DNA of 62,498 bases, filler included. It is 6 parts of 6 records of this genome, joined end to end, with 100 filler letters (N's around TTAATTAATTAA, not from the genome) between each part and the next. Parts side by side here need not be neighbours in the genome. Positions count along the whole stretch, not along the records: positions 39,958 to 48,022 come from SRR31156797_12542; 5 more parts are not named here. One strand, given 5' to 3'. The number at the start of each line of letters is the position of its first letter. Within the stretch, counting starts at the first letter, position 1. Under the pieces are notes generated by a model. That model saw only the letters and a list, made by a program, of their open reading frames with translations, was not told the DNA's origin and searched no databases. The translations under genes and the position numbers were made by a program. This document shows, one piece after another, positions 10,967 through 62,498 of the stretch.

Positions 10967-10975
10967 CCAACAGCC

Positions 10976-21840: not shown

Positions 21841-21940
21841 NNNNNNNNNNNNNNNNNNNNNNNNNNNNNNNNNNNNNNNNNNNNTTAATTAATTAANNNN
21901 NNNNNNNNNNNNNNNNNNNNNNNNNNNNNNNNNNNNNNNN
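21841..21940. other. Artificial contig spacer
   Basis: N44-TTAATTAATTAA-N44 (stops in all six frames). Confidence 0.99.
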
Positions 21941-27863: not shown

Positions 27864-27963
27864 NNNNNNNNNNNNNNNNNNNNNNNNNNNNNNNNNNNNN
27901 NNNNNNNTTAATTAATTAANNNNNNNNNNNNNNNNNNNNNNNNNNNNNNNNNNNNNNNNNNNN
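27864..27963. other. Artificial contig spacer
   Basis: N44-TTAATTAATTAA-N44. Confidence 0.99.
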
Positions 27964-39857: not shown

Positions 39858-39957
39858 NNNNNNNNNNNNNNNNNNNNNNNNNNNNNNNNNNNNNNNNNNN
39901 NTTAATTAATTAANNNNNNNNNNNNNNNNNNNNNNNNNNNNNNNNNNNNNNNNNNNN
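39858..39957. other. Artificial contig spacer
   Basis: N44-TTAATTAATTAA-N44. Confidence 0.99.
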
Positions 39958-40507
39958 CCTTCGGGATATAAACCAAACATGACAAATACACGCTAATCCG
40001 CGATGACCCTAAATATCTGAACTACAGCCCCGCGATATCGCAGGAATATGAACAGTATCCCGGGAAATAAACGAACTGCCGCAAAAAAAATCCATTAAAT
40101 TATTAAATGAGTATACTCAGGAGGGGAGGGATTTTAAGCGATGATGAGGGATGTGTTTAAGGCATGCCGCTTGTCAAAAAAATATGCGGGGTTTCTAATT
40201 CTTTGAAACGTCCTTGGGTTTTTCCTATCGTTTACCACAAGGGACTGAAAATCGCGTGGTGTTTAGAAAGCATGGACTATTCGCCGTGGGATATCAGTCT
40301 TTTTCGTCCCAAATTATCCTTGAAAATGTGTCACTAAAAGAAAGTCTATTTTTTTTGACATATGGTCCGTTCTATGGTTTATTTAGCATCGCGGGAGCCG
40401 TGGTTTTAGGGAGAAAAACCTGCGGTTCATCGGGTTCAAGGCGCAAAGAGGAGCGTTTGAAACCCGCGAAATAGGAATAAACCGACCATTCTTTTCATCT
40501 TAATTCA

Positions 40508-41401
40508 ATGAAAGCCGAACTCGATCTCAACGAGCTGAAAAACCTTATCGCTTCCTGTGGAAAAGGTATTCCACAGGCCAGGGAGGAGTTTCAGGCGTTG
40601 TACGGCAAGATTATCTACAGTTTTCCTGTTAAGGTATTTCGGATCGATGAGGAAAGGGCCGCGGATTTCTATCTATATGTTTTTGAGAAAGACAGAATAT
40701 TCAAGAGGCTAAAAGGTTTCCGGGGCGATAGAATTTCTTTAAGGAATTACCTGAATTATTTTGTGTTGAAAAATTTGGCCTTTGAATGGTTGCGAAAGGA
40801 ATCGAGTGCTTTCATTGATACCATCCCCTTTGATGACAACGCCTCGGAAGCTGTTGAGAAGCACCAATACGGCGGCGAACGAAACCCCGTTGAAATGCTT
40901 GAAAAGGGCGACTGGCTGGTTTTGAGAATCCTCTACATGTATGTACTGCAACTGACCCCTGAGGACATCGAAGTGATTATCAAGAAGTCAGGGAAATCCA
41001 AGGAGAACGTTGATAACTTGATGAAACGGGTTGAAAACCGACTTGATTTGCGGGCCGCAAGGAAAATTGAACAAGACGACCATTTGGAAACCCTTTTCAG
41101 CCGTAGACTGGAATACCATCGACGGCTTGTGATCATTGAAGAAGATATCCTGACGGCCAAGGAAAACAATGACCGGGCGAGACTCGATATTTTGAAAAAC
41201 CGGAAAGATGAGCTGCTGGAAAAATATAATTGGCGTCTTCGGCAGGTGGAGGTAATTCTGGAGAAGTATCCTCTTTCGATGGTTGCGACGTCTTACAAGG
41301 ACATTGCCGAATTGCTGGGTACTACCACCGGAGCCGTCGGCGCCATGATTTACAAGACTAAAGAACGGTTCAGGAAACACTTTTTGTCCGCGCCGCCATG
41401 A
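40508..41401 (+). CDS. ECF-like sigma-70 factor with coiled-coil insertion in region 4
   Basis: Region-2-like FQALYGKIIY...AADFYLYVF...FRG...NLAFEWLRK; C-terminal HTH SYKDIAELLGTTTGAVGAMIYKTKERFR. Confidence 0.8.
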   Translation: MKAELDLNELKNLIASCGKGIPQAREEFQALYGKIIYSFPVKVFRIDEERAADFYLYVFEKDRIFKRLKGFRGDRISLRNYLNYFVLKNLAFEWLRKESSAFIDTIPFDDNASEAVEKHQYGGERNPVEMLEKGDWLVLRILYMYVLQLTPEDIEVIIKKSGKSKENVDNLMKRVENRLDLRAARKIEQDDHLETLFSRRLEYHRRLVIIEEDILTAKENNDRARLDILKNRKDELLEKYNWRLRQVEVILEKYPLSMVATSYKDIAELLGTTTGAVGAMIYKTKERFRKHFLSAPP

Positions 41402-41423
41402 TTAGTGTAGGGAAAATGATCGC

Positions 41424-42116
41424 ATGATATCTTCAGCCAAAGCCGAATGTCCTGATAAATATACCCTTTTCCAATATTTCAATGGCGATCTCAATGTTCG
41501 GGACGTCCAAATTACGAAGGAACATCTGGCGGAATGCTCCGACTGCCTGTTGAGAATTCAGGAATTCGCTTTGATTCAATCCCGCTTGGATGCGGTGCCG
41601 GACCTGGAAGTTCCGAAAGAACTTGCCGGCAAAGTTAGAACAGGATGGAAAACCGCAGGGGACAACCCATCCGTGAAAAAGAACGGAGAAATCGGCCGTC
41701 TGGTTGTTCAGTTTGCAAAGTCCGGGTTTCGGGTTCTCAAGGAATCCATACTCCCCGATGACACGGAAATCATCTGGCGCCAACTTGGAGAGTCTGCTTT
41801 CGTTTTCCGTGATACGAAACAAAATGAAGTCGCTTTGGAGTTGTTGCTTCAGCAGGAAATCCGGAAACAGGACACCGTGCTATCTTTGAGTTTCATTAGA
41901 GAGCCTAACGAATCGGTCCAAATGAGGGTACATTTAAAAGAGTCCGATCGATCATTGCCTGATACCCGTGTCTCCCTGAAAAGGAGCGGTTCCATCCTTC
42001 ATTCCAAAAAGACTGATCCGGAAGGCTCGGCGATTTTTACCCATATTGATCCCGGAACCTATACGGTTGAGATATCATCGAGGAAGATCCAGTGGACCAT
42101 TGAATTCAGGCCGTGA
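41424..42116 (+). CDS. zf-HC2 (ZAS) anti-sigma-like protein with C-terminal Ig/carboxypeptidase-regulatory-like domain
   Basis: ECPD...HLAECSDC (HxxxCxxC); C-terminal KTDPEGSAIFTHIDPGTYTVEI; no TM segment; directly after the sigma gene. Confidence 0.8.
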   Translation: MISSAKAECPDKYTLFQYFNGDLNVRDVQITKEHLAECSDCLLRIQEFALIQSRLDAVPDLEVPKELAGKVRTGWKTAGDNPSVKKNGEIGRLVVQFAKSGFRVLKESILPDDTEIIWRQLGESAFVFRDTKQNEVALELLLQQEIRKQDTVLSLSFIREPNESVQMRVHLKESDRSLPDTRVSLKRSGSILHSKKTDPEGSAIFTHIDPGTYTVEISSRKIQWTIEFRP

Positions 42117-44902
42117 AGCTATCCCTCACAGAGGGAATCCCCATGAGCAAACCCCTTGTGTTGTCGGTGTTTAAGAAGGACGATGTAGCCATATTCGATC
42201 TGGGCGAAACCATGCCCATCGGACGGTATGAACATCTCCGCCTGGAAGGCGACCTTTCAAGAAAAATCGTCCAAGAGATACAAAGGATAACCTCCCTTTC
42301 CAATATTCAACAAAACCAACCGTCTAGGGCATTGGCCCCGCCGTCCTATTCCGATAAAACTGACCCCTTAAAGGAACTAGAAATTCTGGGAAAGATGATT
42401 TTTGACCAACTCTTTCCAAATGAGGTTAAAAACGCCCTGAGAAACGCCAACATCGGGGACCTGATCCTCAGGCTTGACGAGTCCCTTCTTGAGATACCCT
42501 GGGAGTTGGCCCATGACGGTAAAGCCTTTCTCGGGAACCGCTGCCATGTGGGTCGACAGGTCATCAGCAATCGATCCCTGAATAGGACCAGGAAATTCGC
42601 TTCCAGGCCAAAAGGAGAGCAAACCCGCGTTCTTATCATCTCCGATCCCACCGGAAGCCTGCCCGAAGTGGAAAAAGAGACCGAAACTTTGGTTGAACTG
42701 CTTGACCGGAAAGAGGGATTCCATGTGGAGGTCGTCGGGGGTGAAAGGGCCTGCAAGTTTTATATTCTAAAGATGTTGCCGGAATTCCATATGGTCCATT
42801 TTGCCGGCCATTCTGTTTTCAATCCTGAAAATCCACAAGAGAGCGGGTGGCGATTGTTCGATGGTTTTCTCGGACCCGAGGAATTTTCCCGCCTCACGGA
42901 TCCGCCGCGCCTTGTCTTCAGCAATTCCTGCTCATCAGCGGCGGCAAAAGGTTCTTGTGAACCATCAACCATGAAGGTGGAAATGCCCGGAAAGGAGGCC
43001 GTACCGGTTCAAATTGCTAGTTTGGGCTTGGGAGGGAGTTTCCTGCTGGCCGGTGTAGAAAACTACGTGGGTGCGCTCTGGGTGGTTCACGACCGTTCCA
43101 GCGCCCATTTTGCGAGTTATTTTTACGAGGCTCTTATGACCGGATCAACAATCGGCGATGCCCTGTGGAATGCAAAGAGGGAATGTATGAGTTCACAATC
43201 CGTTCAGACTTTTATCTGGGCATCCTACACTCACTACGGGAATCCCCAGGACCGACCCGTTGTGTTCAAACACCGAAAGGAGGGAACGGGAGAAAAGAAA
43301 GCATCAAATGAGGGCACGAAAACACCTGTGACATTTTTTAATCCCCGGCGAAAAGCCTTTTTTGCGGGGGTGTTGGCAATGCTTCTGTTGGCTACCGGCT
43401 ACTGGATATGGATGTTATTCGGTTCCCAATCAACGGGTATTATTGAGCCGGTTCCTGCAGCGAATACCGATGCCCCTTCTTCTCTGTCCGATGTAGTAGA
43501 AATCGCAACGCCGGTCGAAGAGCCGGCTAACACCGTTCCCCAACAGATAGATATTACTCGGGTAAAAGCAGACAAAAGTCTTTCCTCTGGTCTGGCCGGA
43601 GAGCAATCGGCCCATGCGGGTTCCATGGATCGTGAAAAATCGGAATTGGATAAATCGGAAAAGAAGTCCGGGAATGAGCAGTTCTCAGCCGCTCCAGAGT
43701 CTCCCCTGCCTGCTTTCATCCGGATCACGCCCCCCGACAAAAACCTGCCCCTTCAACTTCGAGCATTTTCCGGTTACTGGGAAGGGAGGTGGGACGGTAC
43801 GCTTTATTCGCAATTGATTGTGGAGAAGATCGACGAGAATTCCGCACAAGTTGTCTACTCCTGGGACGCTCATAGATTCGGACGGTTCAAGGCGGGCTAT
43901 TATCGATACAAGGCAACCGTAAGGAGCAACAGGATTAAATTCGGAGGTAAGGGCAGGTCCGTTTTCGAATTCAAAATTTTAGACTCATTGAATCAATTGA
44001 AGGGGGAACGAAAATACAAACACCAATTCAATACCATTACCATGAAGAGAAAGCATCCCGGTTCTCAATCCACGGGACACCCGAATACTTTCACGAATTC
44101 GCTCGGCATGGCATTTGTGAAAGTTTTACCGGGACGCTTTTTTATGGGAAGTGCCATAAGCCCCGCGGCGGTGCTCCAGCGGTACGGTGGACAAAGTCGC
44201 TTTCTTAGGAGATATATGGACGAACACCCACAACATTGGGTAACCATCAGCAAACCTTTTTACATGCAAACCACGGAAGTTACCGTAGGGCAATGGCGAT
44301 CCTTCATTCGGGATACCGGTTATAAGACGGAGGCGGAGACCGACGGGGGCGCCCTCATGTGGACGGGTGCCAGTTGGCAAAAAGTGAAAGGGTGCTATTG
44401 GGACAACCCTGGATTTCCTCAACAGGAAGACAGTCCCGTGACCTGCGTTTCATGGAATGATGTCAATGTTTTTATAACATGGTTGAACGGTAGGGAAGAC
44501 GGGCATTATGGCTTGCCCAGCGAAGCGGAGTGGGAGTATGCGTGCCGGGCGGGGACCACTACGAGATTCTGTTTCGGAAATGACCGGGATCGCCTTGATG
44601 AATATGCATGGCACTGGCAGAATGCCGAACTCCGCACACATCCCGTCGCAGGAAAGAAACCCAACCCATGGGGGCTTTACGATATGCACGGGAATGTCTG
44701 GGAATGGTGCCGGGACTGGTATGGCGATTACGCTTTCGCTTCAGTGGAAGATCCCGAAGGTCCCGGATCTGGCATTGGCAGGGTCGATCGCGGTGGCGGG
44801 TGGATGAGCAGCCCGGCCAGGTGCCGGTCAGGGGCCCGAAACAGCAATTATCCCCGCAGCAGAAATACGGACATCGGCTTTCGCCTTGTCCAAAAACCGT
44901 AG
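42113..44902 (+). CDS. CHAT (caspase-like) protease - TM - FGE-sulfatase/SUMF1 domain protein
   Basis: LEIPWELAHDG, HFAGHS (His) and FSNSCSS (Cys) dyad, WASYTHYGNP; TM after PRRK; FFMGS, TEVTVGQW, LPSEAEWEYACRAG, NPWGLYDMHGNVWEWC, RGGGW, IGFRLV; GTGA overlap with the upstream gene. Confidence 0.9.
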   Translation: MKLSLTEGIPMSKPLVLSVFKKDDVAIFDLGETMPIGRYEHLRLEGDLSRKIVQEIQRITSLSNIQQNQPSRALAPPSYSDKTDPLKELEILGKMIFDQLFPNEVKNALRNANIGDLILRLDESLLEIPWELAHDGKAFLGNRCHVGRQVISNRSLNRTRKFASRPKGEQTRVLIISDPTGSLPEVEKETETLVELLDRKEGFHVEVVGGERACKFYILKMLPEFHMVHFAGHSVFNPENPQESGWRLFDGFLGPEEFSRLTDPPRLVFSNSCSSAAAKGSCEPSTMKVEMPGKEAVPVQIASLGLGGSFLLAGVENYVGALWVVHDRSSAHFASYFYEALMTGSTIGDALWNAKRECMSSQSVQTFIWASYTHYGNPQDRPVVFKHRKEGTGEKKASNEGTKTPVTFFNPRRKAFFAGVLAMLLLATGYWIWMLFGSQSTGIIEPVPAANTDAPSSLSDVVEIATPVEEPANTVPQQIDITRVKADKSLSSGLAGEQSAHAGSMDREKSELDKSEKKSGNEQFSAAPESPLPAFIRITPPDKNLPLQLRAFSGYWEGRWDGTLYSQLIVEKIDENSAQVVYSWDAHRFGRFKAGYYRYKATVRSNRIKFGGKGRSVFEFKILDSLNQLKGERKYKHQFNTITMKRKHPGSQSTGHPNTFTNSLGMAFVKVLPGRFFMGSAISPAAVLQRYGGQSRFLRRYMDEHPQHWVTISKPFYMQTTEVTVGQWRSFIRDTGYKTEAETDGGALMWTGASWQKVKGCYWDNPGFPQQEDSPVTCVSWNDVNVFITWLNGREDGHYGLPSEAEWEYACRAGTTTRFCFGNDRDRLDEYAWHWQNAELRTHPVAGKKPNPWGLYDMHGNVWEWCRDWYGDYAFASVEDPEGPGSGIGRVDRGGGWMSSPARCRSGARNSNYPRSRNTDIGFRLVQKP

Positions 44903-44975
44903 ATTTCCCCCATCCGAAATCCTGAAAAACGATTCGATCCCAAAGTGGGGTGAGACCTGTGGGAGCGTGTCGGTT

Positions 44976-45956
44976 TTAGGGCCTTTCCGCCATGAGGTAC
45001 TCCGAACCGGGGTTTAGAAAAAACCGGCCCATATTGCTCAAAATCGTCAGCAATTCATTGATCTGAATGGCGTAAAAGGCAGGCGGAATTTCCGTCTTGA
45101 ACAGTTCCTGTTCTTCTTCATCTTCGTGTATCAACCGCATATTGATCAGCCGGCACATTTCCACGTGTTCTTTTGTCACTGCCAATGTTGAAAAATGCGA
45201 TTCCTCGTTCCATTCCTGACTGGTGAGCAAGATGTAAAGTTGCCCAAAGATCTGAAGGGATGTGGTGGAATGATCCGCGTAGAGTGAAAAAAGATGAAGA
45301 CATGCATTGTGCAATTGATCACGGGAGGGAACAAGATCGGCTTTGGTCAAATCCTTGTCGGAAATCGTCCTTTCATAAAGTTTCCGATAAGCGCGTTTTC
45401 TAAGGGGAAAACAGAAACAGTGGCCGATATGAGTGGCGTGGCTTCGAACAAAAAGATTAACCTCCGGCGCCAGCTTTGATGCGGCAGCTACAAACGAAAT
45501 GGAAATATCCGGTTTTTTGGAATAAATATCCTGATCATGTTCCAGACAGGTTTCAATGGCCAGCCGCTGATCTTCTTTGAAGAGTTTATCAAAGGAAACG
45601 ATCTCGATATTGGCATCTATGTCTAATTGACTCGTTTTGAATATAGAGTTAGTTAGACATTCTAAATTTAACAGTTTTTCATCAATATGGCTTGTTGCAT
45701 ATATTCTCTTTCTGAGGTCATAGGCGACGGGTACATCTCTATCCAATCGAATAAGGGCATCAAAAGGAATTCCGGTTGTCCTTGAAATCTCTTCCAGATC
45801 TTGCTTCGGGGTGCCCCGCTTATGCTCTCTGTTCTCCAGACGCCTCCATTGTCTGGCGTAAGAGACTCCGAATTTTTCGGCCATCTTTTCTTGTGTCAGG
45901 CCCGTGTAATCTCGATATGCCTTAAGTATCTGGGACAAGTTGGAATATTGCTCCAT
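44976..45956 (-). CDS. XRE-family HTH regulator with C-terminal GNAT-like/sensor domain
   Basis: LKAYRDYTGLTQEKMAEKFGVS..WRRLEN; C-terminal fold assignment is tentative. Confidence 0.75.
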   Translation of the reverse strand: MEQYSNLSQILKAYRDYTGLTQEKMAEKFGVSYARQWRRLENREHKRGTPKQDLEEISRTTGIPFDALIRLDRDVPVAYDLRKRIYATSHIDEKLLNLECLTNSIFKTSQLDIDANIEIVSFDKLFKEDQRLAIETCLEHDQDIYSKKPDISISFVAAASKLAPEVNLFVRSHATHIGHCFCFPLRKRAYRKLYERTISDKDLTKADLVPSRDQLHNACLHLFSLYADHSTTSLQIFGQLYILLTSQEWNEESHFSTLAVTKEHVEMCRLINMRLIHEDEEEQELFKTEIPPAFYAIQINELLTILSNMGRFFLNPGSEYLMAERP

Positions 45957-46208
45957 CTCTCATCATCCTCGGCAGAAATTACCAAACATAAGAGGACATT
46001 TTCTGTCCTGGTTTCGAATTTTCAAGGAGTTTACAATGTCGAAGTTCAGAATACAAGGGTTTTAACATTAAAAAATCAGCATTTCTATCTGGTTTGTTGG
46101 TTTTTCCCCTTGGAATGCCGACAATCTCTCATTATGAACTGCAACTATCTATCAAATCATCAATGCTTTTGGCGGAAAGCTCATATCAAAATAAATGTCT
46201 ATAATAAT

Positions 46209-46383
46209 TCCTTGTTATTTTAGCATGGGGATGGCAACTGCCGATAGTCTGAAGGCAGTTGAAAGAATGGTCGAATCAAGACGCATTGATCAACGCATAA
46301 TCAATCAAGTGCATGTTGCATCCAACAATAATGGACTGTGGGGGGAAGAAAAACCCAGTAATATTCATCCTTCACAATAAGGA
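46209..46383 (+). repeat. ~170-bp non-coding direct repeat, copy 1
   Basis: TCCTTGTTATTTTAGCATG...GATAGTCTG...CATAATCAATCAAG...GGAAGAAAAACCCAG, collinear with 46674-46838. Confidence 0.9.
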
Positions 46384-46423
46384 AGGTCATTCCGGCCTAT
46401 TTCAGGAAAAAAGGAGGATCATC

Positions 46424-46669
46424 ATGAACAAGCTGGCGATACTTATTATGGGTATCATTTTTTTGGTCTTTGGTGTGATCGGTTTGATTGCTGCATACGC
46501 CGTACGTCCACCATCAGATGTTGGCGAGGCGCTAATGATGATAGGGCAAAATAGAATGGGTTATCTGAAGGCGCCTTATTACCATATCGGCTTTGGCATG
46601 TCGTTGTTCACTTCCTTGCTTGGCATAATTCTGACATTTAAAGGGTTGTCAAGGGGAAAATGTCTTTAA
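46424..46669 (+). CDS. Small two-TM membrane protein (81 aa)
   Basis: AAGGAGGA RBS before ATG 46424; two hydrophobic helices; lies between the two repeat copies. Confidence 0.75.
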   Translation: MNKLAILIMGIIFLVFGVIGLIAAYAVRPPSDVGEALMMIGQNRMGYLKAPYYHIGFGMSLFTSLLGIILTFKGLSRGKCL

Positions 46670-46673
46670 AAAG

Positions 46674-46838
46674 TCCTTGTTATTTTAGCATGTGATAACA
46701 ACTGTGGATAGTCTGGCGGGAATTGAAACAATGGCCGAAGCAAGACACATAATCAATCAAGCGCATTGTGCCTCCAAAAATAATGAACTTCGTGGAGGAA
46801 GAAAAACCCAGAAATTTTCATTCTCCTAAAAATAGGCA
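46674..46838 (+). repeat. ~165-bp non-coding direct repeat, copy 2
   Basis: Collinear with copy 1 but lacks a ~12-nt segment; starts 4 nt after the stop of the small gene. Confidence 0.9.
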
Positions 46839-47182
46839 ATGTTTTCACTGAGGGCCTATTTTAGAAACCATGGAAAAGCCTACATTCGTTTTCTCAATAT
46901 GGGAAACCCGTGAGTTTTTTTTCTCTCCGGAATTATTGAGGAAAATTGGTTAAATGTAAGAATAAGATACAGGAAATTTTCGTCACTAATAAATAGATAA
47001 CGGTTTCCAGGGAGGATAATACGGAAAATCAACTCTAGAAACAGCCGATGAGGTTTTTGAAAAGAAAACAGCTCAAGGATAATAGAACTGAGGTAATGAT
47101 AAAATAATCAATAGATTAGTTTGCGTGATTTGGCAGTGTGTATGTCACATTAAATTAACAAACCCAAAAGGAGGAAAAGAGT

Positions 47183-47506
47183 ATGGATCAGGAGAAAGGG
47201 TTTACAGCATCGCTTTTTGATCTTTCATTCAAAGCGTTAATTACATCAAGATTGGTGACGGTTTTGTATGGCCTTTCTGTAACCTGTGCAGGAATAACAG
47301 CGGTTCTCATGATTAAATCCGCATTTTCATTTTCGGCAATCACCGGATTCGCGACGCTCATCGGCGCACCATTGCTTTTCCTGATAATCGTCATTTGGGC
47401 AAGAGTCATTTTGGAAATCATCATGGTTTTGTTTCGCATTTCAAATGACGTTGCCAAAATGGCGGCGAGTATTGATCTGAATAAAGATCTCGAATCACAG
47501 AAGTGA
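47183..47506 (+). CDS. DUF4282-like membrane protein
   Basis: LFDLSFKALITSRLVTVLY...ARVILEIIMVLFRI; AAGGAGG RBS. Confidence 0.8.
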   Translation: MDQEKGFTASLFDLSFKALITSRLVTVLYGLSVTCAGITAVLMIKSAFSFSAITGFATLIGAPLLFLIIVIWARVILEIIMVLFRISNDVAKMAASIDLNKDLESQK

Positions 47507-47572
47507 AAAGAGCTTGGTGAAAACAATTAATAGCGGTTTAACGAAGTTAATCACACAAAAAGGGGGGAGTTC

Positions 47573-47929
47573 ATGCGAAAACCAACACATAATCAAGTTA
47601 TAGTTATAGTGGCTATATTTGGGATTTTGATAAATATTCTTGCATGCACTTCAAGCTCGGAAGACACCCTGGTGGGTAAATGGCAGGAGATAGACGGGGC
47701 TGAAACAATGGCGTTTTCAAAAGAAGGGAATGTAACCATTGTTCCCGATGATGCCCCTTCAATGAGCGGGCAATATAGCTTTACTGATAAGGATACTGTG
47801 AAGATAAAGCTATCCGGCCTGGTTGGAGCCATGCTTGACCCGTTTATTCTTAAAGTGACGGTTACAAAGAAAGAGCTAACGGTGATACTCCCGGATGGGA
47901 AAACCGGCAAATTTAAGAGGGTAAAGTAG
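47573..47929 (+). CDS. Small beta-rich lipoprotein
   Basis: Lipobox ILAC; LVGKWQ and SGQYSF motifs. Confidence 0.75.
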   Translation: MRKPTHNQVIVIVAIFGILINILACTSSSEDTLVGKWQEIDGAETMAFSKEGNVTIVPDDAPSMSGQYSFTDKDTVKIKLSGLVGAMLDPFILKVTVTKKELTVILPDGKTGKFKRVK

Positions 47930-48022
47930 GCGTCTTATAAACTGAGATAATCACTAAAAAAAACAAAAGAAAAGAGAGCTAATCAAAAAAATATTTTTTA
48001 GTTCAGTATAGAAACCCTTGCC

Positions 48023-48122
48023 NNNNNNNNNNNNNNNNNNNNNNNNNNNNNNNNNNNNNNNNNNNNTTAATTAATTAANNNNNNNNNNNNNNNNNNNNNN
48101 NNNNNNNNNNNNNNNNNNNNNN
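48023..48122. other. Artificial contig spacer
   Basis: N44-TTAATTAATTAA-N44. Confidence 0.99.
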
Positions 48123-51429: not shown

Positions 51430-53301
51430 TCAGATTTCCTTAACCCAGATGACCTCACCCATTTGCATAGCCTCAAAAATATCAAAAGCAACTTCCGAAT
51501 CGGACCGTACCTTGATATCGCCGTGTCTGCTAACAGTTGCTGAGAATAGGAATCCTTCACCTGCATAGACTTCCACATCATGGGAGGCTGCCTCGGGGAC
51601 ACTAAGGATAACATGTTTTCTTGTGCGCTCGATGATGGGGTGATGTTCCTTGTTTTCTTGTGGTTTCCTGTCATCACCTTTTTGCAATCTGTTCTCCTCT
51701 CCGGCTTCAAACTTACGCACATCGATGTGGATACCAAGCCTCTTTTCTATGTCATCAATGGTTTTACCACTTTTACCTATCACTTTGGGCATGTCCTTGT
51801 CTCTTACACGCACCATGGCCCTGTTGTCTGATACCATTTCAGCCTCAACCGGACCGTTTGCATAGTTGCTGATGACTTCTTTTACTTCCTCTTCTGCAAA
51901 TTTCCATGCCGGATTTCTCTTCTGCTCTCCGCCAAGGGGCATAACTACAACCTGTTCACCGTAGGTGTAAATCTCAAATTCATGTTTTCCCGTCTCAATA
52001 TCAGAAATGAGGATGACAGGTCTGGCAAGGTCGGCTTCCATCATGCCAGCAGGCACCTTTACAGTGAACTCAAGGACCTGTACCTTTGTAATTTCGCCCT
52101 TGTCAATGAAGATTACAGTATCCACTACCTGCGGGATAACTCCAAGCTCAACCCTTCCGATGAGTCTCTGGATAGCATCGACTGCCCGGTTGGCGTGTAC
52201 AACTCCTATCATTCCCACACCTGCAAGGCGCATGTCTGCAAATATTTCGAAATCCCGTGTCTTGCGTACTTCATCATATATGGTATAATCCGGACGCACA
52301 AGGAGGAGCACATCTGCCGTGTTCTCAAGGCTTCCGTCAAGAGGTGCGTACTGGGTGATTTCCTGTGGAACCTGGAGGTCACGAGGTGATTCCATCGTTT
52401 TTACAACTGATCCATTGTCATTAAGATATGTAGCAACTCCTGCTGCAAAAGTAGATTTTCCGGCACCTGGTGGCCCTGCAATAAGTACTCCTCTCTGTGT
52501 GAGTATTCTTTCCTTTAGCATATCACTCAGGCGATACTCTTCAAGTGAAACAGATGCAATAGGACGTACAATTGTGATTTCGATATCATCTGAAAACGGA
52601 GGTTTTGATATGGCGATCCTCATATTCCTTATCTGAAGGACGGATGCACCGGTAAACGACATTTCGCTGAAAGATTCAAGATCTGAACGTGCTTTTTCAA
52701 GTAATTCTCTTGATATCATTCTAAGTTCTGCGTAAGTACATGGCTCGTTCCTGATTTTCATATATTTTACGTTGCCTATGGATCCTCTCTTTGCCATGGG
52801 TGGTACTTTGTGTTTCAAATGGACTGACATTGTGTCAGGTGTAAAAAACTCATCCACCAGCAGGGTTCCAAACTCTTCTGGAGCAGGCTTTACAAATTCT
52901 ACCTCAACTCCCTTTGCCATTGCAACAAGGGACTGCACCCTGTCTCCGGTAACAAACTGTGCCTTAAGTTCCACAGCTGTCTCCCTGATCAGAGCATCTA
53001 TTTCTCCTCCCTTGGCAAGTTTAACCTGATCAAGGTTAGGACGTAAACCTGTGAAAAATAATCTTATGATCTCTTTTTCGGAGTGACGCTGTATCTCCTG
53101 TATTTCTTCCAGGCCCTTGTATCCGATCTCAAGTCCCCTGTTTGCCTGTGCTTCCAGCTCGGCCATAACAGCCTCAGGGACATGGATATCTACGTCCTTC
53201 AGTTCACCGTTGCGTATTCTTTCTGACAGGATACCATCGATGACTGCACTGGTGTCAGGGACTACTTTTTGCCTGTTGTCTGCACATTCTTCCATAATCA
53301 T
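51430..53301 (-). CDS. PIN-domain ATPase with KH domain (PINA type, archaeal)
   Basis: VPDTSAVIDG (PIN), GPPGAGKST, TMESPRDL, YDEVR, KVIGKSG (KH). Confidence 0.93.
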   Translation of the reverse strand: MIMEECADNRQKVVPDTSAVIDGILSERIRNGELKDVDIHVPEAVMAELEAQANRGLEIGYKGLEEIQEIQRHSEKEIIRLFFTGLRPNLDQVKLAKGGEIDALIRETAVELKAQFVTGDRVQSLVAMAKGVEVEFVKPAPEEFGTLLVDEFFTPDTMSVHLKHKVPPMAKRGSIGNVKYMKIRNEPCTYAELRMISRELLEKARSDLESFSEMSFTGASVLQIRNMRIAISKPPFSDDIEITIVRPIASVSLEEYRLSDMLKERILTQRGVLIAGPPGAGKSTFAAGVATYLNDNGSVVKTMESPRDLQVPQEITQYAPLDGSLENTADVLLLVRPDYTIYDEVRKTRDFEIFADMRLAGVGMIGVVHANRAVDAIQRLIGRVELGVIPQVVDTVIFIDKGEITKVQVLEFTVKVPAGMMEADLARPVILISDIETGKHEFEIYTYGEQVVVMPLGGEQKRNPAWKFAEEEVKEVISNYANGPVEAEMVSDNRAMVRVRDKDMPKVIGKSGKTIDDIEKRLGIHIDVRKFEAGEENRLQKGDDRKPQENKEHHPIIERTRKHVILSVPEAASHDVEVYAGEGFLFSATVSRHGDIKVRSDSEVAFDIFEAMQMGEVIWVKEI

Positions 53302-53857: not shown

Positions 53858-54622
53858 ATGGATTATAGTTTTGATGGTAGCGGCGGATACAGGATTCCAA
53901 CAGGAATAGGTGGACTTGATGTACAACTGGGTGGAGGAGTGCCTCCAGGAGCAACGATTCTGGTTCTTGCAGAGCCCGGAGCAAATTCTGATATGTTTGC
54001 CCAGCAGTTTGTTTATGGAGGTCTTTTGAACAACGAGGATGTATTCTATTATACTTCAGAACATCCCGCAAATGAGATCGTAAGCGAGATGAGCGAAATG
54101 AACTGGGATGTTGAAAAATATATTGAAGACGGTTCACTTCAATTTATTGATGCTTACATGCCTCGTTTCTATAACGTTCTTCCAAAAGAATTTACAAGCA
54201 ATCTTTCTGCAAAGGACTTCCTTAAAAAAGGAACAGATTCCATGGGTCTTCTCAAGGCCACAGCCATTCAGAAAAGAGATGGCAAATACAGGGGAGTTGT
54301 TGATTCTCTGTCGTACTTCCTTCGTGCATATAATCTCAATACTGTTGTTGAAGTCATCGAGATGATGTCTTCCGTAGGAAAAGCAACAGGGGCTATTCAC
54401 CTTATACTGATGACAAGCGGAATGCATGATTCAGTTACTGAAAACACCCTGCGTCACATCTGTGACGGAGTTATTGAGTTCAGGCTAAAGGAGCGTGGAA
54501 GTGAGATTGAACGCACTATCATGATACGTAAAATGCGTGGAATGCTTGTTCCAAACCGTACGATTTCTTATCTGGTCACACAGAAGGGAATTGAACTTGA
54601 AACTACTACACGTGTTCTTTAA
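53858..54622 (+). CDS. RAD55/KaiC-like RecA-superfamily protein
   Basis: RIPTGIGGLDVQLGGGVP, VVDSLS, CDGVIEF, IRKMRG; Walker A degenerate. Confidence 0.88.
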   Translation: MDYSFDGSGGYRIPTGIGGLDVQLGGGVPPGATILVLAEPGANSDMFAQQFVYGGLLNNEDVFYYTSEHPANEIVSEMSEMNWDVEKYIEDGSLQFIDAYMPRFYNVLPKEFTSNLSAKDFLKKGTDSMGLLKATAIQKRDGKYRGVVDSLSYFLRAYNLNTVVEVIEMMSSVGKATGAIHLILMTSGMHDSVTENTLRHICDGVIEFRLKERGSEIERTIMIRKMRGMLVPNRTISYLVTQKGIELETTTRVL

Positions 54623-57306: not shown

Positions 57307-57406
57307 NNNNNNNNNNNNNNNNNNNNNNNNNNNNNNNNNNNNNNNNNNNNTTAATTAATTAANNNNNNNNNNNNNNNNNNNNNNNNNNNNNNNNNNNNNN
57401 NNNNNN
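57307..57406. other. Artificial contig spacer
   Basis: N44-TTAATTAATTAA-N44. Confidence 0.99.
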
Positions 57407-57430
57407 ACATACCCGTCACGGAGATTAATT

Positions 57431-58954
57431 TTGAGAGCAATTGAAACACTGGAGATGAAGGATATTTCCAAATCCTTTGTCGGAGTCAGGGCCAACAGGG
57501 ATGTGAACCTGACCGTTCAGGCCGGAGATGTTCTGGGACTGCTGGGCGAAAACGGCGCCGGCAAGACCACCCTGATGAACATCCTCTACGGCCTCTACCT
57601 GCCGGATGAAGGACAGGTACTGATCAACGGGAAGGAGATCCGCCTCCGCAATCCCAAGGACAGCATGCATGCGGGCATAGGTATGATCCATCAGCACTTC
57701 ATGCTGGTGCAGAAGCATACGGTGCTGGAGAACATCGCCCTGGGCTACGAAAGCGCTCCCTTCTTCTTCCCCCAGAAATACATGAGGAAGAGGATCAGGG
57801 AGTACTCGGAGCGCTTCGGGCTGGAGGTGGATCCGGACAAGAGGATCTGGGAACTCTCCGCCGGCGAGCAGCAGAGGGTGGAGATCCTGAAAGCCCTCTT
57901 CCGGAACGCCGACCTTCTGATCATGGACGAGCCCACCTCGGTTCTGACTCCCCAGGAGGCGGAAGAGCTTTTCGCCATACTGAGGAAGATGAGCGGCCAG
58001 GGTCACTCGGTCATCCTGATCAGCCACAAGCTGGAAGAGATCATGTCCATCTGCAGCAAGGTCATGGTCATGAGGAAGGGCGAGGTCACCGGAAGCGCCG
58101 AGATCAGGGACGTGACCCAGAAGGACCTGGCCCGGATGATGATCGGCCGGGAGATCAGCAGCTGCTTCGACAAAAGCGAGGTCCCCAGGGGCGAAACGGT
58201 TCTCGAGGTTAGGAATATCCAGGTCGCCAGCGACCAGAACCTCCCCATTGTCAGAGAGCTCTCCTTCAGCCTGTCCCGGAACGAAATTCTGGGAGTGGCC
58301 GGGGTTTCGGGAAACGGACAGAGGGAGATGGTCGAAGCCATAACGGGCCTCAGACGGGCTCTGGACGGCAATATCTTTCTCCACGGTGAGGAGATCACCA
58401 ATCTCTCGGCCAGGAAGATCCATGACAAGGGGATCACCCATGTTCCCGAAGAGAGGATCAAGCACGGCACCGTTTCCACCCTCCAGCTCTACGAGAATTC
58501 CGTGCTGAAGCAACACCACAGGAATCCCTTCAGCGTCCACAGCCTGATGAACTACCCCCGTATCCGCAAATACGCGGGCAATCTGGTGGACTCCTACAAC
58601 GTGGACGCCCCGTCCATCAACACCCCCGTCAAAAACCTGTCGGGAGGGAATATCCAGAAGCTCATCCTGGGACGGGAGATCACCGCCCGACCGGATATAC
58701 TGATAGCCGCCCACCCCACCTACGGCCTGGACGTGGGAGCCGCCGAGTATATCCGTCAGGAACTGATCGCCTGCCGCGACCGGGGCGGCGCGGTCCTCCT
58801 GGTCTCCGAGGACCTTGAAGAGCTCTTCCAGGTCTGCGACAGGATAGCGGTCATGTTCGAAGGCCGTTTCATGGGTATCGTCGATCCCAAGGACTGCGAC
58901 ATCGACGAGATCGGCCTGATGATGGCCGGAACCATGCCGGGAGGAGAGGAATAA
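57431..58954 (+). CDS. Nucleoside/sugar ABC transporter ATP-binding protein (two ABC domains)
   Basis: GENGAGKTT, LSAGEQQRVE, MDEPT, LSGGNIQK, PTYGLDVGA. Confidence 0.95.
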   Translation: MRAIETLEMKDISKSFVGVRANRDVNLTVQAGDVLGLLGENGAGKTTLMNILYGLYLPDEGQVLINGKEIRLRNPKDSMHAGIGMIHQHFMLVQKHTVLENIALGYESAPFFFPQKYMRKRIREYSERFGLEVDPDKRIWELSAGEQQRVEILKALFRNADLLIMDEPTSVLTPQEAEELFAILRKMSGQGHSVILISHKLEEIMSICSKVMVMRKGEVTGSAEIRDVTQKDLARMMIGREISSCFDKSEVPRGETVLEVRNIQVASDQNLPIVRELSFSLSRNEILGVAGVSGNGQREMVEAITGLRRALDGNIFLHGEEITNLSARKIHDKGITHVPEERIKHGTVSTLQLYENSVLKQHHRNPFSVHSLMNYPRIRKYAGNLVDSYNVDAPSINTPVKNLSGGNIQKLILGREITARPDILIAAHPTYGLDVGAAEYIRQELIACRDRGGAVLLVSEDLEELFQVCDRIAVMFEGRFMGIVDPKDCDIDEIGLMMAGTMPGGEE

Positions 58955-60033
58955 TGCCCCTACTGATACTGCCCAGAGAGAGGACGACCCTTCTCTTCAA
59001 TACACTGGTGCTTCTGGGATCCCTGCTCGCCGGACTGGTCGCTGTGGGAATCGTCTTTCTGACCTACGGGATAAACCCCTTCTTCGCCATCTACGAGATC
59101 TTCCGGTCCTCCTTCGGAAGCCTCTTCGGCTTCAAGGAGACCCTGACCAAGGCCATCCCCCTGATCCTGATCGGGAGCGGCCTGGCCCTGGCCTATAAGG
59201 CGAAGTTCTGGAACATCGGCGCCGAAAGCCAGCTCCTCTGGGGCGCCATCATGGCCACCTGGGTGGGCCTGAACTGGGGCCCCCATCTTCCCGGCCCCGT
59301 CATCATACCCTTGATGTTCCTGGCCGGATTTATCGGAGGGGCCCTCTGGGGCATCATCCCGGCCGTATTCAAGGTGCGCTTCGGCATCAATGAAGTCATC
59401 TCCACCCTGATGCTCAACTACGTGGCCGCCGAGTTCGTCAAGTTTCTTGTGGTCGGTCCCTGGAAGGGAGAGACCAAGTACGGCTATCCCTATACCGACG
59501 ACCTCCCCGAGCAGGCCATCCTGAAGCTGATGCCCTATTCGAGGATATCCGTCCCCCTTCTGATCATGGCCGTGGTTATCGCCCTGATCCTCTGCTTCCT
59601 GGTCTACCGCTCCCGTTTCGGCTACGAGGTCCGGGTCATCGGCGAGAACTCGGAAGCCGGAAAGTACGCGGGGATCGACTTCTTCAGAACCACCGTCCTG
59701 ATGATGGCCGTCTCCGGCGGCGTGGCGGGGCTTGCGGGGGTGGGAGAGCTCTCGGCGATCCATCATCATCTGAGCTACCCAGAGACCATCAGCGCCGGTT
59801 ACGGGTTCACCGCCATCATCGTCGCCTGGCTGGGACGGCTGAATCCCGGATTCGCCATACTGTCGGGACTGTTCTTCGCGGGGATCATCGTGGGAGGAGA
59901 CGCCATCCAGATGTCCATGGGCCTCCCCGCCGCCACGGTCAATGTCTTTAACGGGCTGATCCTGGTCTTCCTTATAATGGGAGACTTCCTGCTGAGTCAC
60001 AGACTCCGCTACAAGAGACCCCTCAGGTCATAA
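58954..60033 (+). CDS. ABC transporter permease (nucleoside/BMP-associated type)
   Basis: WNIGAESQ, NEVISTLMLNY, GYGFTAIIVAWLGRLNP. Confidence 0.93.
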   Translation: MPLLILPRERTTLLFNTLVLLGSLLAGLVAVGIVFLTYGINPFFAIYEIFRSSFGSLFGFKETLTKAIPLILIGSGLALAYKAKFWNIGAESQLLWGAIMATWVGLNWGPHLPGPVIIPLMFLAGFIGGALWGIIPAVFKVRFGINEVISTLMLNYVAAEFVKFLVVGPWKGETKYGYPYTDDLPEQAILKLMPYSRISVPLLIMAVVIALILCFLVYRSRFGYEVRVIGENSEAGKYAGIDFFRTTVLMMAVSGGVAGLAGVGELSAIHHHLSYPETISAGYGFTAIIVAWLGRLNPGFAILSGLFFAGIIVGGDAIQMSMGLPAATVNVFNGLILVFLIMGDFLLSHRLRYKRPLRS

Positions 60034-60088
60034 GCAACAAGTTCACCCGACGGGCGCCGCCCTTCCGGTGACTATAAGGAATTGAAAC

Positions 60089-61015
60089 ATGATTGATATC
60101 ATTACATCCATACTGGTCCGCACCATCGTGGCGGGAACGCCCCTCCTCCTGGGAACCATGGGCGAGGTGATCTGCGAGCGGGCGGGCATCCTCAACCTGG
60201 GCGTCGAGGGGATGATGTCCCTGGGGGCGGTGACCGGTTTCATCGTCACCTTCACCACAGGAAATCCCTGGCTGGGCATGATCGCCGCCATCCTGGCGGG
60301 AGCCCTTATCTCCCTGCTCCACGCCTTCGTCACCATCAGCCTCAGGGCCAACCAGGTCGTGTCGGGGCTCTCCCTGACCATGCTGGGCCTGGGGCTCAGC
60401 GGCCTGTGGGGCAAGCCCTATATCGGCCGTCCCCTGGAAGTGAAGATGGCCCCCGTCGCCATCCCCGGCCTCTCGGACATCCCCCTTCTCGGAGAGGTCC
60501 TCTTCTATCAGGACGCCTATTTCTATCTCTCCGTAATCCTGGGCCTGATCGTCTGGTTCCTGATGAAGTACAGCAAGATGGGCATCACCGTCCGTTCGGT
60601 GGGAGAGAATCCCAAGGCCGCGGAAACCCTGGGGATCAACGTGACCCTGGTCAAATACCTCTGCGTCATGGCCGGAGGCGCTTTCGCCGGCATGGCGGGA
60701 GCCCACCTTTCCACGGCCTACAGCAAGTCCTGGATCGAGGGCATGACCTCGGGAAGGGGATGGATCGTCATCGCCCTGACCATATTCGCGCTCTGGGAGC
60801 CTTCCAAGGCCTTCCTGGGGGCCTATGTGTTCGGAGGGATCTTCGTCCTGCAGTACGTTCTCCAGCCCCTGGGGATCTCCCCCAACCTGCTGGCCATGCT
60901 CCCCTATCTGACCACCCTGATCGTACTGCTGGCCTACGGCATGAGCAGCGGAGGGAAGCGGAAGATGAGCGCCCCCGCCACCCTGGGCGAGCCCTATATC
61001 AGGGGAAGCCGCTAG
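60089..61015 (+). CDS. ABC transporter permease (nucleoside/BMP-associated type)
   Basis: ERAGILNLGVEGMM, RSVGENPKAA, GRGWIVIAL, PATLGEPY. Confidence 0.93.
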   Translation: MIDIITSILVRTIVAGTPLLLGTMGEVICERAGILNLGVEGMMSLGAVTGFIVTFTTGNPWLGMIAAILAGALISLLHAFVTISLRANQVVSGLSLTMLGLGLSGLWGKPYIGRPLEVKMAPVAIPGLSDIPLLGEVLFYQDAYFYLSVILGLIVWFLMKYSKMGITVRSVGENPKAAETLGINVTLVKYLCVMAGGAFAGMAGAHLSTAYSKSWIEGMTSGRGWIVIALTIFALWEPSKAFLGAYVFGGIFVLQYVLQPLGISPNLLAMLPYLTTLIVLLAYGMSSGGKRKMSAPATLGEPYIRGSR

Positions 61016-61037
61016 CCAGCTCTCCCGCGACAGATAC

Positions 61038-61076
61038 AGCCCGCCGCTCCTGAACCACAGGGGGGGCGGGCTTTTT
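61038..61076 (+). terminator. Intrinsic terminator after the ABC operon
   Basis: AGCCCGCC...GGCGGGCT stem followed by TTTT. Confidence 0.8.
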
Positions 61077-61150
61077 ATAACACAGCGGCGTCATAAATCT
61101 GCTCCGAAATAACATGGAAAGACAGGCCCAGCGGAACGATACTTTACATT

Positions 61151-62488
61151 ATGTTTTTAGTAATGTTTTTCTTTTTATTGATTCCGCCCCTCTCCGGAGA
61201 GCCCCTGCATATCCCGCCCCTCCTGGACGGCCCGGTTCAGAGGATACAAGTGGTTCAGGGCGAGCTGAATCTGAAAGGCGGAACAACGGAAACCCTGGGA
61301 TACAACGGAAACTATCTGGGCCCAACCCTCCGCTTCAGGCGGGGAGAAGAGGCAGACCTCACCATAGTCAACGAGCTTAAGGAAGAGACGACCTTCCACT
61401 GGCACGGGATGCGCGTTCCGGCGGAATTCGACGGCGGCCCCAGGCAGGTCATAGGAGCGGGAGAAGAGTGGAATCCCCGGTTTCCCATAGACCAGCCGGC
61501 GGCCACCCTCTGGTACCACCCCCATATGATGGGCCGTACGGCGGAACAGGTTTACAGGGGACTGGCCGGAATGATCATCATCGAAGACGAGTTCAGCGAC
61601 TCCCTGTCCATCCCCTCCGATTACGGCAGGAACGACATCCCCCTGATCCTGCAGGACAGACGCCTGAACAGGAAGGGGGAGTTCCGTTACAGACCCCGCA
61701 TGCCGGACATCGTCCACGGCTACACGGGAAACATCCTTCTCACCAACGGGCAGATCGAGCCGGAACTCTACATCGAAGAAAGCCTCGTGCGTCTGAGGAT
61801 CCTGAACGGTTCTAACTCGACGCTCATGCGCCTGAGCTTCAGAAGCGGCAGCTCCTTTACAGTCATTGCCTCAGACGGCGGCTTCCTCCCCGAGTCGGCA
61901 GAGATGGACCGGCTGGTTCTCTCCCCCGGAGAGCGCTATGAGCTGCTGGTCGATCTGGAGGAGGGGGAGGATGAGCTGATAACGGAGCTCTACAGCGGAG
62001 AGAGCTTCACCGCCCTCCGGATCCGATCCCATGCCCGGGAGGCAGGCCATCCCGTTCCGACGGTAGAGGCGCCCCGGCCAGATGCGGGAGATCCGGACAC
62101 GGTCCGCACGTTCATGATGGAAACCCGGCACATGGGAAGGTTCTCCATCAACGGCCGGACCATGGATCTGGACAGAATAGACTTCAGGGCCCGGCAGGGG
62201 AAGATGGAGCATTGGATCATAGAGAACAGGGGCAGGGGCATGATGATGAACCTCCCCCACTCCTTCCACGTCCATGACGTTCAGTTCACGATCCTTGAGA
62301 TAAACGGACGCCCGCCCCCTCCCCATCTTTCCGGCCCGAAGGATACGGTGCTGCTCATGGCCGGAGACAGGGTGAAGATTTCCCTTCGCTTTGAAGATTA
62401 CAGTGGGATCTATATGTACCACTGCCATATGCTGGAGCATGAGGATGCCGGCATGATGGGTCAGTTTGAGGTGATTTCTCCCCGCTAA
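61151..62488 (+). CDS. Multicopper oxidase (CueO/SufI family)
   Basis: HWHG, WYHPH, HSFHVH and HCHMLEHEDAGMM copper motifs; hydrophobic N-terminus. Confidence 0.95.
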   Translation: MFLVMFFFLLIPPLSGEPLHIPPLLDGPVQRIQVVQGELNLKGGTTETLGYNGNYLGPTLRFRRGEEADLTIVNELKEETTFHWHGMRVPAEFDGGPRQVIGAGEEWNPRFPIDQPAATLWYHPHMMGRTAEQVYRGLAGMIIIEDEFSDSLSIPSDYGRNDIPLILQDRRLNRKGEFRYRPRMPDIVHGYTGNILLTNGQIEPELYIEESLVRLRILNGSNSTLMRLSFRSGSSFTVIASDGGFLPESAEMDRLVLSPGERYELLVDLEEGEDELITELYSGESFTALRIRSHAREAGHPVPTVEAPRPDAGDPDTVRTFMMETRHMGRFSINGRTMDLDRIDFRARQGKMEHWIIENRGRGMMMNLPHSFHVHDVQFTILEINGRPPPPHLSGPKDTVLLMAGDRVKISLRFEDYSGIYMYHCHMLEHEDAGMMGQFEVISPR

Positions 62489-62498
62489 GGGTCTTTTG

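Follow-up and report, generated by a model that had tools for sequence, protein, structure and literature searches.

The DNA analysed here, called the window throughout, is 62,498 nucleotides long and consists of six concatenated contigs joined by five N44-TTAATTAATTAA-N44 linkers. Three co-directional open reading frames (ORFs), all on the plus strand (40508-41401, 41424-42116 and 42113-44902), lie together on a single 8065-bp contig piece (39958-48022), which is their true neighbourhood. They encode a sigma factor resembling the extracytoplasmic function (ECF) type, a soluble protein with a zinc-associated anti-sigma (ZAS) domain, and a caspase-like CHAT protein with one transmembrane (TM) helix and an FGE-sulfatase domain. 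Together they form a real, conserved and apparently undescribed three-gene unit, probably a switch, in which the theme of a protease-released sigma factor is combined with a unique FGE-sensor chimera. Since the window is concatenated and the trio's piece is limited to 39958-48022, the acyl-CoA genes found upstream in the window are not neighbours of the trio. The features of the three genes are the following, with the residues of the third protein (P0003) counted from GTG 42113 (929 aa) throughout:

40508..41401, plus strand: sigma factor P0001, ECF-like, 297 aa (sub-threshold sigma-70/ECF matches, AlphaFold2 (AF2) model)
41424..42116, plus strand: soluble anti-sigma P0002, 230 aa (weak zf-HC2 and, from NCBIfam, antisig_RsrA matches; zinc motif; no TM helix)
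41448-41450, plus strand: codon of C9, candidate fourth zinc ligand
41523..41546, plus strand: zinc motif H34-x3-C38-x2-C41 (HxxxCxxC), from alignment and sequence
41808..41810, plus strand: codon of the invariant R129, in a loop modelled with low confidence that joins the helical part to the beta-sandwich
41835..42107, plus strand: prealbumin/CarboxypepD_reg-like beta-sandwich with the predicted CHAT-docking surface (residues 182-196, 207 and 209)
42113..44902, plus strand: CHAT-TM-FGE receptor protease P0003, 929 aa (likely start ATG 42143, 919 aa)
42386..43243, plus strand: CHAT caspase-like domain, residues 92-377 (PF12770, 128.4 bits against a cut-off of 24)
42809-42811 and 42929-42931, plus strand: codons of His233 and Cys273
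43361..43417, plus strand: single TM helix, residues 417-435, with RRK directly before it; segment conserved in the homologue P0189
43418..44113, plus strand: predicted extracytoplasmic low-complexity linker and small domain of no assigned family (residues ~540-650)
44114..44890, plus strand: FGE-sulfatase domain (C-type-lectin-like fold), residues 668-926, 188 bits

An earlier reading made from the letters alone (the sequence-only reading) had described three linked genes with a 22-nt gap between the first two, and both the ORFs and this distance from the sigma stop codon to the next ATG are confirmed. The GTGA overlap that it described between genes 2 and 3 holds only if GTG 42113 is the start of gene 3. 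However, the motif AGAGGGA precedes ATG 42143, and the closest homologue (P0189) begins at exactly the same Met, which makes this ATG the likelier start. Gene 3 would then probably follow gene 2 after a 26-nt gap and encode 919 aa, not the 929 previously given.

The sigma factor matches the relevant models below their curated cut-offs (TIGR02937, 35.5 bits under 42.9; Sigma70_r4_2, 21.1 under 25.7), and the Pfam scan finds no Sigma70_r2 match in it. The profile of its family matches the sigma4 domains of AlgU, SigH, sigmaE and SigR in the PDB (best E 3e-6). In the AF2 model (predicted local distance difference test, pLDDT, 87), a sigma2 domain at residues ~7-102 is followed by a disordered loop (103-123, pLDDT < 50), three short helices (127-161), a long helical hairpin (165-253) and a sigma4 helix-turn-helix (HTH, ~235-294). 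ECF sigma factors head the Foldseek rows for this model, all with E-values > 0.09, and residues 7-102 superpose on region 2 of sigmaE over 90-99 columns (template-modelling score, TMt, 0.65-0.69; root-mean-square deviation 3.1-4.1 A; Foldseek E 0.3). Since no row for the P0001 or P0002 model reaches E <= 0.001, the identities of the top rows serve as leads only. The VIA wide fold search with the P0001 model is filled by helical hairpins and says nothing on the sigma domains. Profile and model together place both the sigma2 and the sigma4 fold in P0001, separated by ~130 residues (103 to ~235) instead of the short linker of a canonical ECF sigma factor. A word-based search yields a family of 30 members of ~300 residues (28-56% identity), with conserved sigma2-like and sigma4-like blocks. 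The insert is kept in 30/30 members, and Y37, F54, Y55, Y57, F59, R63, W94, R96, Y263 and D265 are invariant. With its sub-threshold matches and large insert, P0001 is ECF-like but non-canonical, in agreement with the atypical ECF-like sigma factor first proposed.

The second gene encodes a protein in which the H-x3-C-x2-C motif and an upstream Cys make up a ZAS signature. H34, C38, C41, P64, R129, R182, S194 and G201 are invariant in 53/53 relatives, and C9 is kept in at least 90% of them. No hydrophobic segment or TM helix is found in P0002. Its AF2 model (pLDDT 78, falling below 50 at residues 126-128) begins with a ZAS helical bundle (12-78, helices at 12-55 and 65-78); a flexible stretch (79-137) then leads to a beta-sandwich modelled with confidence (138-228), which CarboxypepD_reg/Ig-like models match weakly. 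The soluble HxxxCxxC protein with an Ig-like C-terminus of the sequence-only reading is thus recovered, with a C9/H34/C38/C41 site. Foldseek places ChrR, a soluble ZAS anti-sigma of two domains, in its top rows (prob 0.82-0.92, E ~4e-3). A full HMMER search returns 1646 proteins at E <= 0.001, most of them covering only the beta-sandwich repeat of giant surface proteins, and full-length relatives, 228-301 residues long, account for 18 of the best 150. Relatives of ~285 aa pass the zf-HC2 model (Pfam E 1e-8 to 3e-14) by way of an additional N-terminal ZAS module. Most anti-sigma relatives (L004, L007, L011, L018 and others of ~285 aa) carry two tandem C-H-C-C ZAS modules, and P0002, its Desulfobacteraceae relatives and the proteins of L001 and L025 keep the second module only. 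Long ORFs in high-GC loci that looked like sigma-anti-sigma fusions were rejected because their frames differ from the frame of the sigma match.

In the CHAT domain of P0003, H229, H233 and C273 are invariant in 33/33 sequences, and we take H233 rather than H229 to be the catalytic His on the basis of the CHAT/caspase motif. The dyad is therefore intact, as claimed, and because it and the surrounding motifs are invariant, proteolysis is likely retained. The RRK before the TM helix contrasts with 0 basic residues in the 25 that follow it, and no signal peptide is found in P0003, so that the single TM helix, the basic CHAT side and the FGE domain beyond it stand as originally drawn. The region between the helix and the FGE domain has no Pfam match and no match in related loci, and an Atlas search with its piece 530-655 returns unnamed clusters only, all < 0.8. 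The FGE domain itself reaches FGE chains of the PDB at E 1e-27 to 1e-29, and also PvdO and a Treponema variable protein. The active-site pair of human FGE is Cys336/Cys341. The segment of P0003 aligned to these cysteines, WMSSPARCRSGAR, contains one Cys and a 3-residue deletion. With a single Cys at this place, the domain is likely a binding module and probably non-catalytic.

The linkage of the three genes was surveyed with the sigma-family profile in 35 loci from species-representative genomes and in the best 80 of 116 metagenome relatives. Two presumed duplicates were removed (L112, byte-identical to L024, and L084, which has the length, coordinates and scores of L017 yet is not byte-identical), leaving 113 loci. 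A P0002-like anti-sigma gene directly follows the sigma gene in 72/113, and a CHAT gene of the window subfamily is adjacent in 43 of these 72 (phmmer E 1e-11 to 1e-95). It lies downstream on the same strand in 37 loci, upstream and divergent in 5, and upstream on the same strand in 1. Among the 29 loci with the anti-sigma and without CHAT, 25 end < 500 nt past the anti-sigma gene, and CHAT is thus adjacent in 43/47 judgeable loci. The conserved sigma/ZAS/CHAT linkage for which a neighbourhood survey had been suggested is therefore found. Conversely, only one of the 41 loci without a P0002-type anti-sigma has a CHAT gene (L096, whose contig ends 183 nt after sigma). A reverse search of 5 genomes gave 7 strong CHAT-subfamily matches, 6 linked to sigma and 1 a frameshifted orphan. 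A metagenome scan with the anti-sigma alignment gave no matches. The genome loci belong, by their record titles, to Desulfobacteraceae, 'Deltaproteobacteria', Thermodesulfobacteriota, Binatia and Methylomirabilota; a distant sigma clade occurs in Spirochaetia, Leptospiraceae and Hydrogenedentota. The trio recurs across many uncultured bacteria, and its linkage spans Desulfobacterota, Binatia, Methylomirabilota and soil metagenomes. Two of the metagenome-assembled genome (MAG) records, L004 and L016, are titled Klebsiella pneumoniae and Enterobacteriaceae; the loci otherwise occur in MAGs of Binatia/Desulfobacterota type, and these titles look like mislabels.

Some relatives are arranged differently. 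Four close sigma relatives without CHAT (L014, L021, L022 and L028) have membrane-anchored ZAS anti-sigmas instead, and those of L014, L021 and L028 end in a C-terminal SH3 domain. A protein ending in SH3_3 also follows the CHAT gene in two TPR-type loci (L004:11177-11959 and L018:11106-11954). In L017, a TM-bearing ORF with a weak ZAS match lies just downstream. A more distant CHAT-SnoaL gene (L126:6653-9013) is preceded by a P0002-like protein, with no sigma of the family within 5.6 kb. Some sigma relatives without an adjacent anti-sigma adjoin a Trans_reg_C-AAA_16-TPR (SARP/AfsR-like) regulator (L054:3745-6936, L099:108-3137 and L029:3405-6251).

The CHAT proteins of these loci share their first ~400 residues (55% mean column identity) and differ in what comes after. 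A TM-TPR part follows in L001, L004, L007, L011, L018, L025, L038 and L074, and an AAA_16 (STAND) NTPase, usually with TPR and without TM, in L013, L015, L019, L023, L027 and L114. L095 (685-3438, minus strand) has a guanylate-cyclase-like and SnoaL part, and L009, L043 and L052 have unassigned sequence. Together with the TM-FGE form of the window, these cases bear out the suspicion that a constant CHAT module is combined with variable sensor domains. Since a TM-less CHAT protein fused to an NTPase must be cytoplasmic, these homologues support a cytoplasmic CHAT in the membrane forms as well, and so strengthen the topology deduced from the basic residues. P0003 aligns up to and including its TM helix (residues 11-440) with P0189, a CHAT-TM-TPR protein of 777 residues, at 65% identity, and its residues 651-925 share 61% identity with the FGE domain of a Peptidase_C14-PEGA-FGE protein. 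On these two alignments, P0003 is a chimera whose ectodomain was swapped just after the TM helix, and its FGE form a one-off in a family normally bearing TPR. In L001, from Desulfobacteraceae, the gene next after CHAT (10932-12377) encodes a Peptidase_C14 (caspase)-PEGA protein; the window has no such gene there. This C14-PEGA link, and the fact that the FGE domains most similar to that of P0003 are those of C14-PEGA-FGE proteins, hint that two families of caspase-like receptors have exchanged parts or that two proteases act in a cascade, as in type III-B. In two loci, other genes come after the P0002-like anti-sigma: a Ser/Thr protein kinase gene truncated where the contig stops (L016:2771-3526) and a gene for a 360-aa FGE-sulfatase protein (L060:3638-4720). 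One and the same sigma/anti-sigma pair may here receive its input through different modules.

A physical connection between the second and third proteins is suggested by a complex prediction with CHAT residues 1-400 and P0002, in which the tool made no use of alignments. The pair scores 0.64, against 0.00 for the best of 3 controls, and the CHAT:anti-sigma complex anticipated by the sequence-only reading is thus predicted. The same mark is reached by 51/78 solved complexes and 2/108 mismatched pairs, and also by 7/44 blindly drawn neighbour pairs. Three prediction runs have at least 95% of contacts in common, with a partner pLDDT of at least 69. In the predicted interface, strand 189-196 of the P0002 beta-sandwich pairs with strand 204-212 of CHAT, and R182 of P0002 (invariant in 53/53) contacts D198 of CHAT (invariant in 33/33).

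From these data, we lean slightly towards a sensor-gated cleavage of the docked anti-sigma, which would release the sigma factor. At rest, P0001 would be held by the ZAS domain of soluble P0002, whose beta-sandwich would be docked on the cytoplasmic CHAT domain of P0003, so that the whole complex would be tethered to the receptor. An extracytoplasmic ligand would bind the FGE/C-lectin-like ectodomain, presumed non-catalytic, and activate the His233/Cys273 protease; in the relatives, the sensor would be the TPR ectodomain or the cytoplasmic STAND NTPase-TPR part. The CHAT protease would then cut P0002 in its flexible middle, possibly after the invariant R129, whose choice as a candidate cleavage position is speculative. 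The sigma factor would be freed, probably once the remnant of the anti-sigma has been degraded. In this scheme we infer sigma binding, activation by ligand, cleavage and its site, and the regulon. Somewhat more tentatively, the loci may represent a widespread and undescribed class of modular receptor-proteases, in which a constant cytoplasmic CHAT would grip the beta-sandwich tail of a soluble ZAS anti-sigma and cut this protein when signalled by one of several exchangeable sensors (TM-TPR, TM-FGE or STAND NTPase-TPR).

Several observations weigh against release by cleavage or against its generality. Four loci with a P0002-type anti-sigma and at least 800 nt downstream have no CHAT gene: L016 has the protein kinase, L060 the FGE-only protein, L047 an MFS transporter and L115 an ORF of no assigned family. 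In the distant sigma clade (L030 and L032-L035), the ZAS proteins are soluble and no CHAT gene lies within 7 kb. The CHAT+FGE fusion occurs once, with no other case in related loci or among the best 120 database matches of P0003, and could be a recent chimera. P0001 stays below the curated thresholds of sigma-70/ECF models, P0002 scores 16.2 bits with zf-HC2 where the gathering score is 22.2, and its complete CHCC zinc site could make it a redox sensor itself. The predicted contact with CHAT is an exosite away from the dyad and not an enzyme-substrate pose, and the pass rate of blindly drawn neighbour pairs lowers the weight of the docking score. Finally, a promoter search upstream of 90 sigma genes (pairs of a 5-mer and a 4-mer 14-19 nt apart, within 220 nt) gives a best pair in 11/90, compared with 7-9 in ten shuffles; a scan for consensus sigma-70 promoters stays at shuffle level.

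The zinc site leads to one rival explanation, in which the CHAT protein is an output. A thiol- or zinc-sensing sigma/ZAS switch of the RsrA/ChrR kind would drive its own operon, with CHAT as an effector such as an envelope or cell-death protease. The complete C9/H34/C38/C41 set resembles that of redox-sensitive ZAS proteins, in line with the weak antisig_RsrA match and the ChrR rows in Foldseek, and the order sigma, anti-sigma, cargo is the usual one in autoregulated ECF operons. We nevertheless find this unlikely. The anti-sigma beta-sandwich accompanies CHAT in every case and would, by the complex prediction, dock on it, the CHAT proteins bear typical input modules (ectodomains, STAND NTPases), and the CHAT gene is upstream or divergent in 6/43 loci, outside a simple sigma-first operon. 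Nor did the search upstream of the 90 sigma genes find an autoregulatory promoter motif.

The position of the predicted contact, away from the dyad, brings up a second alternative, namely that the protease has other targets. These would be the sigma factor (in loop 103-123 or the hairpin insert) or many cell proteins, and P0002 would be a docked, securin-like inhibitor or adaptor. The conserved ~130-residue sigma insert with its loop of pLDDT < 50 would suit such a role. The type III-B caspase is described as cleaving a sigma factor and a dedicated inhibitor (bioRxiv 10.1101/2023.06.23.546230, in part), and we read the STAND-CHAT forms as resembling conflict systems. The long flexible segment of P0002, which carries an invariant Arg and separates the sigma-binding part from the docking part, would however suit a substrate, and PADLOC matches are limited to a weak BovA one on the CHAT protein (E 1.2e-3) and an HTH_VI one on a neighbouring gene. 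Targets of this kind seem improbable to us. Still more doubtful is a partner switch without proteolysis, in which the ligand would decide whether the receptor binds the anti-sigma or lets it go, with CHAT as a scaffold. Docking at an exosite would fit this, and soluble anti-sigmas are often controlled by binding partners, but the invariance of the dyad and nearby motifs in 33/33 sequences argues for retained catalysis. A chance adjacency or MAG mis-assembly of unrelated genes, which the concatenation of short contigs and the uniqueness of the CHAT+FGE fusion might suggest, can be practically discarded because the survey shows conserved linkage: the three genes are on one contig, the same trio occurs in 43 other loci, the chimera junction falls exactly after the TM helix with the reading frame intact, and one public DNA run, which may be the source sample, contains all sampled words of the stretch. 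None of the runs listed for the stretch is of RNA.

The proposed release of the sigma factor by cleavage of its docked inhibitor has parallels in several known systems, compared here on the basis of portions of the cited papers. In Myxococcus xanthus, DdvA is a ZAS anti-sigma fused to a periplasmic TPR-CHAT part, and its ZAS domain holds the sigma factor DdvS. The His/Cys dyad of its CHAT domain is proposed to start sigma release by cleavage, with intramembrane cleavage by RseP thought to come next (PMC11506125, in part); the first step is unproven because the signal is unknown. The trio shares with DdvA/DdvS an ECF-type sigma, a CHCC ZAS domain, a His/Cys dyad in CHAT and a sensor outside the cytoplasm. 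It differs in that no single polypeptide joins ZAS, TM and periplasmic TPR-CHAT: the ZAS protein is separate and without TM, CHAT is separate and on the N-terminal, basic (cytoplasmic) side, and the ectodomain is FGE (TPR in relatives).

The type III-E Craspase (Cas7-11, the TPR-CHAT protein Csx29, Csx30 and Csx31) was the model cited by the sequence-only reading. There, Csx29 cleaves Csx30, an inhibitor of CASP-sigma (PMC10028731, in part). As in Craspase, a cytoplasmic CHAT protease is combined with a separate sensing module and a soluble inhibitor of an ECF-like sigma, whose cleavage is in our case proposed. Unlike Craspase, the trio has no Cas gene or CRISPR-like repeat on its contig, its inhibitor is a ZAS protein and not Csx30, and its trigger would not be a target RNA. 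Piece 39958-48022 contains no direct-repeat array and no Rfam match, and does not show the type III-E setting of Cas7-11/gRAMP, a CRISPR array and Csx30/Csx31 beside a TPR-CHAT gene. No Cas family appears in the Pfam results for the window ORFs, nor in those for 102 ORFs downstream of sigma in 33/35 genome-contig loci (L020 and L026 having no qualifying ORFs). Against the PDB, the CHAT profile matches 8tl0 best (E 0.002), followed by separase (0.3) and the DdvA chain (0.65), and Csx29 is not listed at E <= 10. The entry 8tl0, a 'CHAT domain-containing protein', may be SAVED-CHAT. The likeness to Craspase thus stands for the function and falls for the family: it is one of logic.

DdvA/DdvS and SAVED-CHAT/PCaspase, which had not been named before, are at least as close. 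In Haliangium ochraceum type III-B, SAVED senses cyclic oligoadenylate and a second caspase (PCaspase) cuts PCc-sigma; CalpL, of CalpL/CalpT/CalpS, is a Lon-type protease activated by cyclic oligoadenylate via SAVED (bioRxiv 10.1101/2023.06.23.546230, in part). Like the trio, both tie a signal-activated protease to a sigma factor and its inhibitor. In III-B it is the second caspase that cuts, and while a Peptidase_C14 gene follows CHAT in L001, none does in the window. The ECF54 group occurs with carboxypeptidase, subtilase and CHAT proteins, and proteolytic control has been proposed for it. It is actinobacterial and without an anti-sigma (PMC8999054 and PMC7826278, both in part), unlike the trio with its ZAS partner, ~130-residue sigma insert and Desulfobacterota/Binatia/Methylomirabilota hosts. 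The main text of the ECF classification, in the portion covered, makes no mention of CHAT; its supplements, outside that portion, may list a matching group (PMC7826278).

ChrR-SigE and RsrA-SigR also have a soluble anti-sigma with an N-terminal zinc ZAS domain, to which ChrR adds a C-terminal sensor domain. ChrR and RsrA themselves sense singlet oxygen or thiol stress, and are not known to be accompanied by a dedicated protease gene. The C-terminal domain of P0002 is by contrast a prealbumin-like beta-sandwich predicted to bind the CHAT protease. The trio shares its logic with Craspase, CalpL/T/S, SAVED-CHAT/PCaspase and DdvA/DdvS and is a member of none, because Cas genes and arrays are missing, the inhibitor is a ZAS protein, CHAT is separate and cytoplasmic, and the CHAT profile reaches solved CHAT chains weakly. 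In the literature searched, supplements such as that of PMC7826278 lying outside the search, no description was found of a stand-alone sigma, soluble ZAS and CHAT-sensor trio.

The only sigma factors known to combine release by a protease with a link to CHAT or caspase domains are those of CRISPR-associated systems and that of the DdvA fusion. In the trio family, sensor-protease, inhibitor and sigma are three separate proteins, each soluble or single-pass, and nature has swapped the sensors, which makes the cleavage hypothesis open to direct test. If it is true, these loci would constitute a transmembrane route from caspase to transcription that needs neither CRISPR nor cyclic nucleotides, and a new type of input for ECF-like signalling. 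With its TPR-to-FGE swap placed right behind the TM helix, P0003 would amount to a domain-swap experiment done by nature, in which the ectodomain sets the ligand. A function would also be given to many FGE-sulfatase and TPR ectodomains fused to caspase-like proteases.

The remaining features of the window are the following:

44976-45956, minus strand: XRE-type HTH gene, convergent to the CHAT gene (326 aa, HTH N-terminal)
21841-21940, 27864-27963, 39858-39957, 48023-48122 and 57307-57406: linkers between the contig pieces

The Pfam search of the XRE-type protein gives no match at E <= 0.001, and the HTH_VI match of PADLOC is weak (E 3.7e-6). Two small membrane ORFs and one lipoprotein-like ORF are also present on 39958-48022. 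The small ORF 40214-40474 was treated as non-coding because nothing corresponding to it precedes the sigma gene of L001 or L025. The guanine-plus-cytosine content of the last piece (57407-62498) is ~0.60, compared with 0.39-0.52 elsewhere in the window, and the bin may therefore be mixed. Another contig of the window encodes a PIN-ATPase-KH protein (51430-53301, minus strand; PIN, T2SSE and KH_1 matches) and, on the plus strand, a KaiC-like ATPase (53858-54622).

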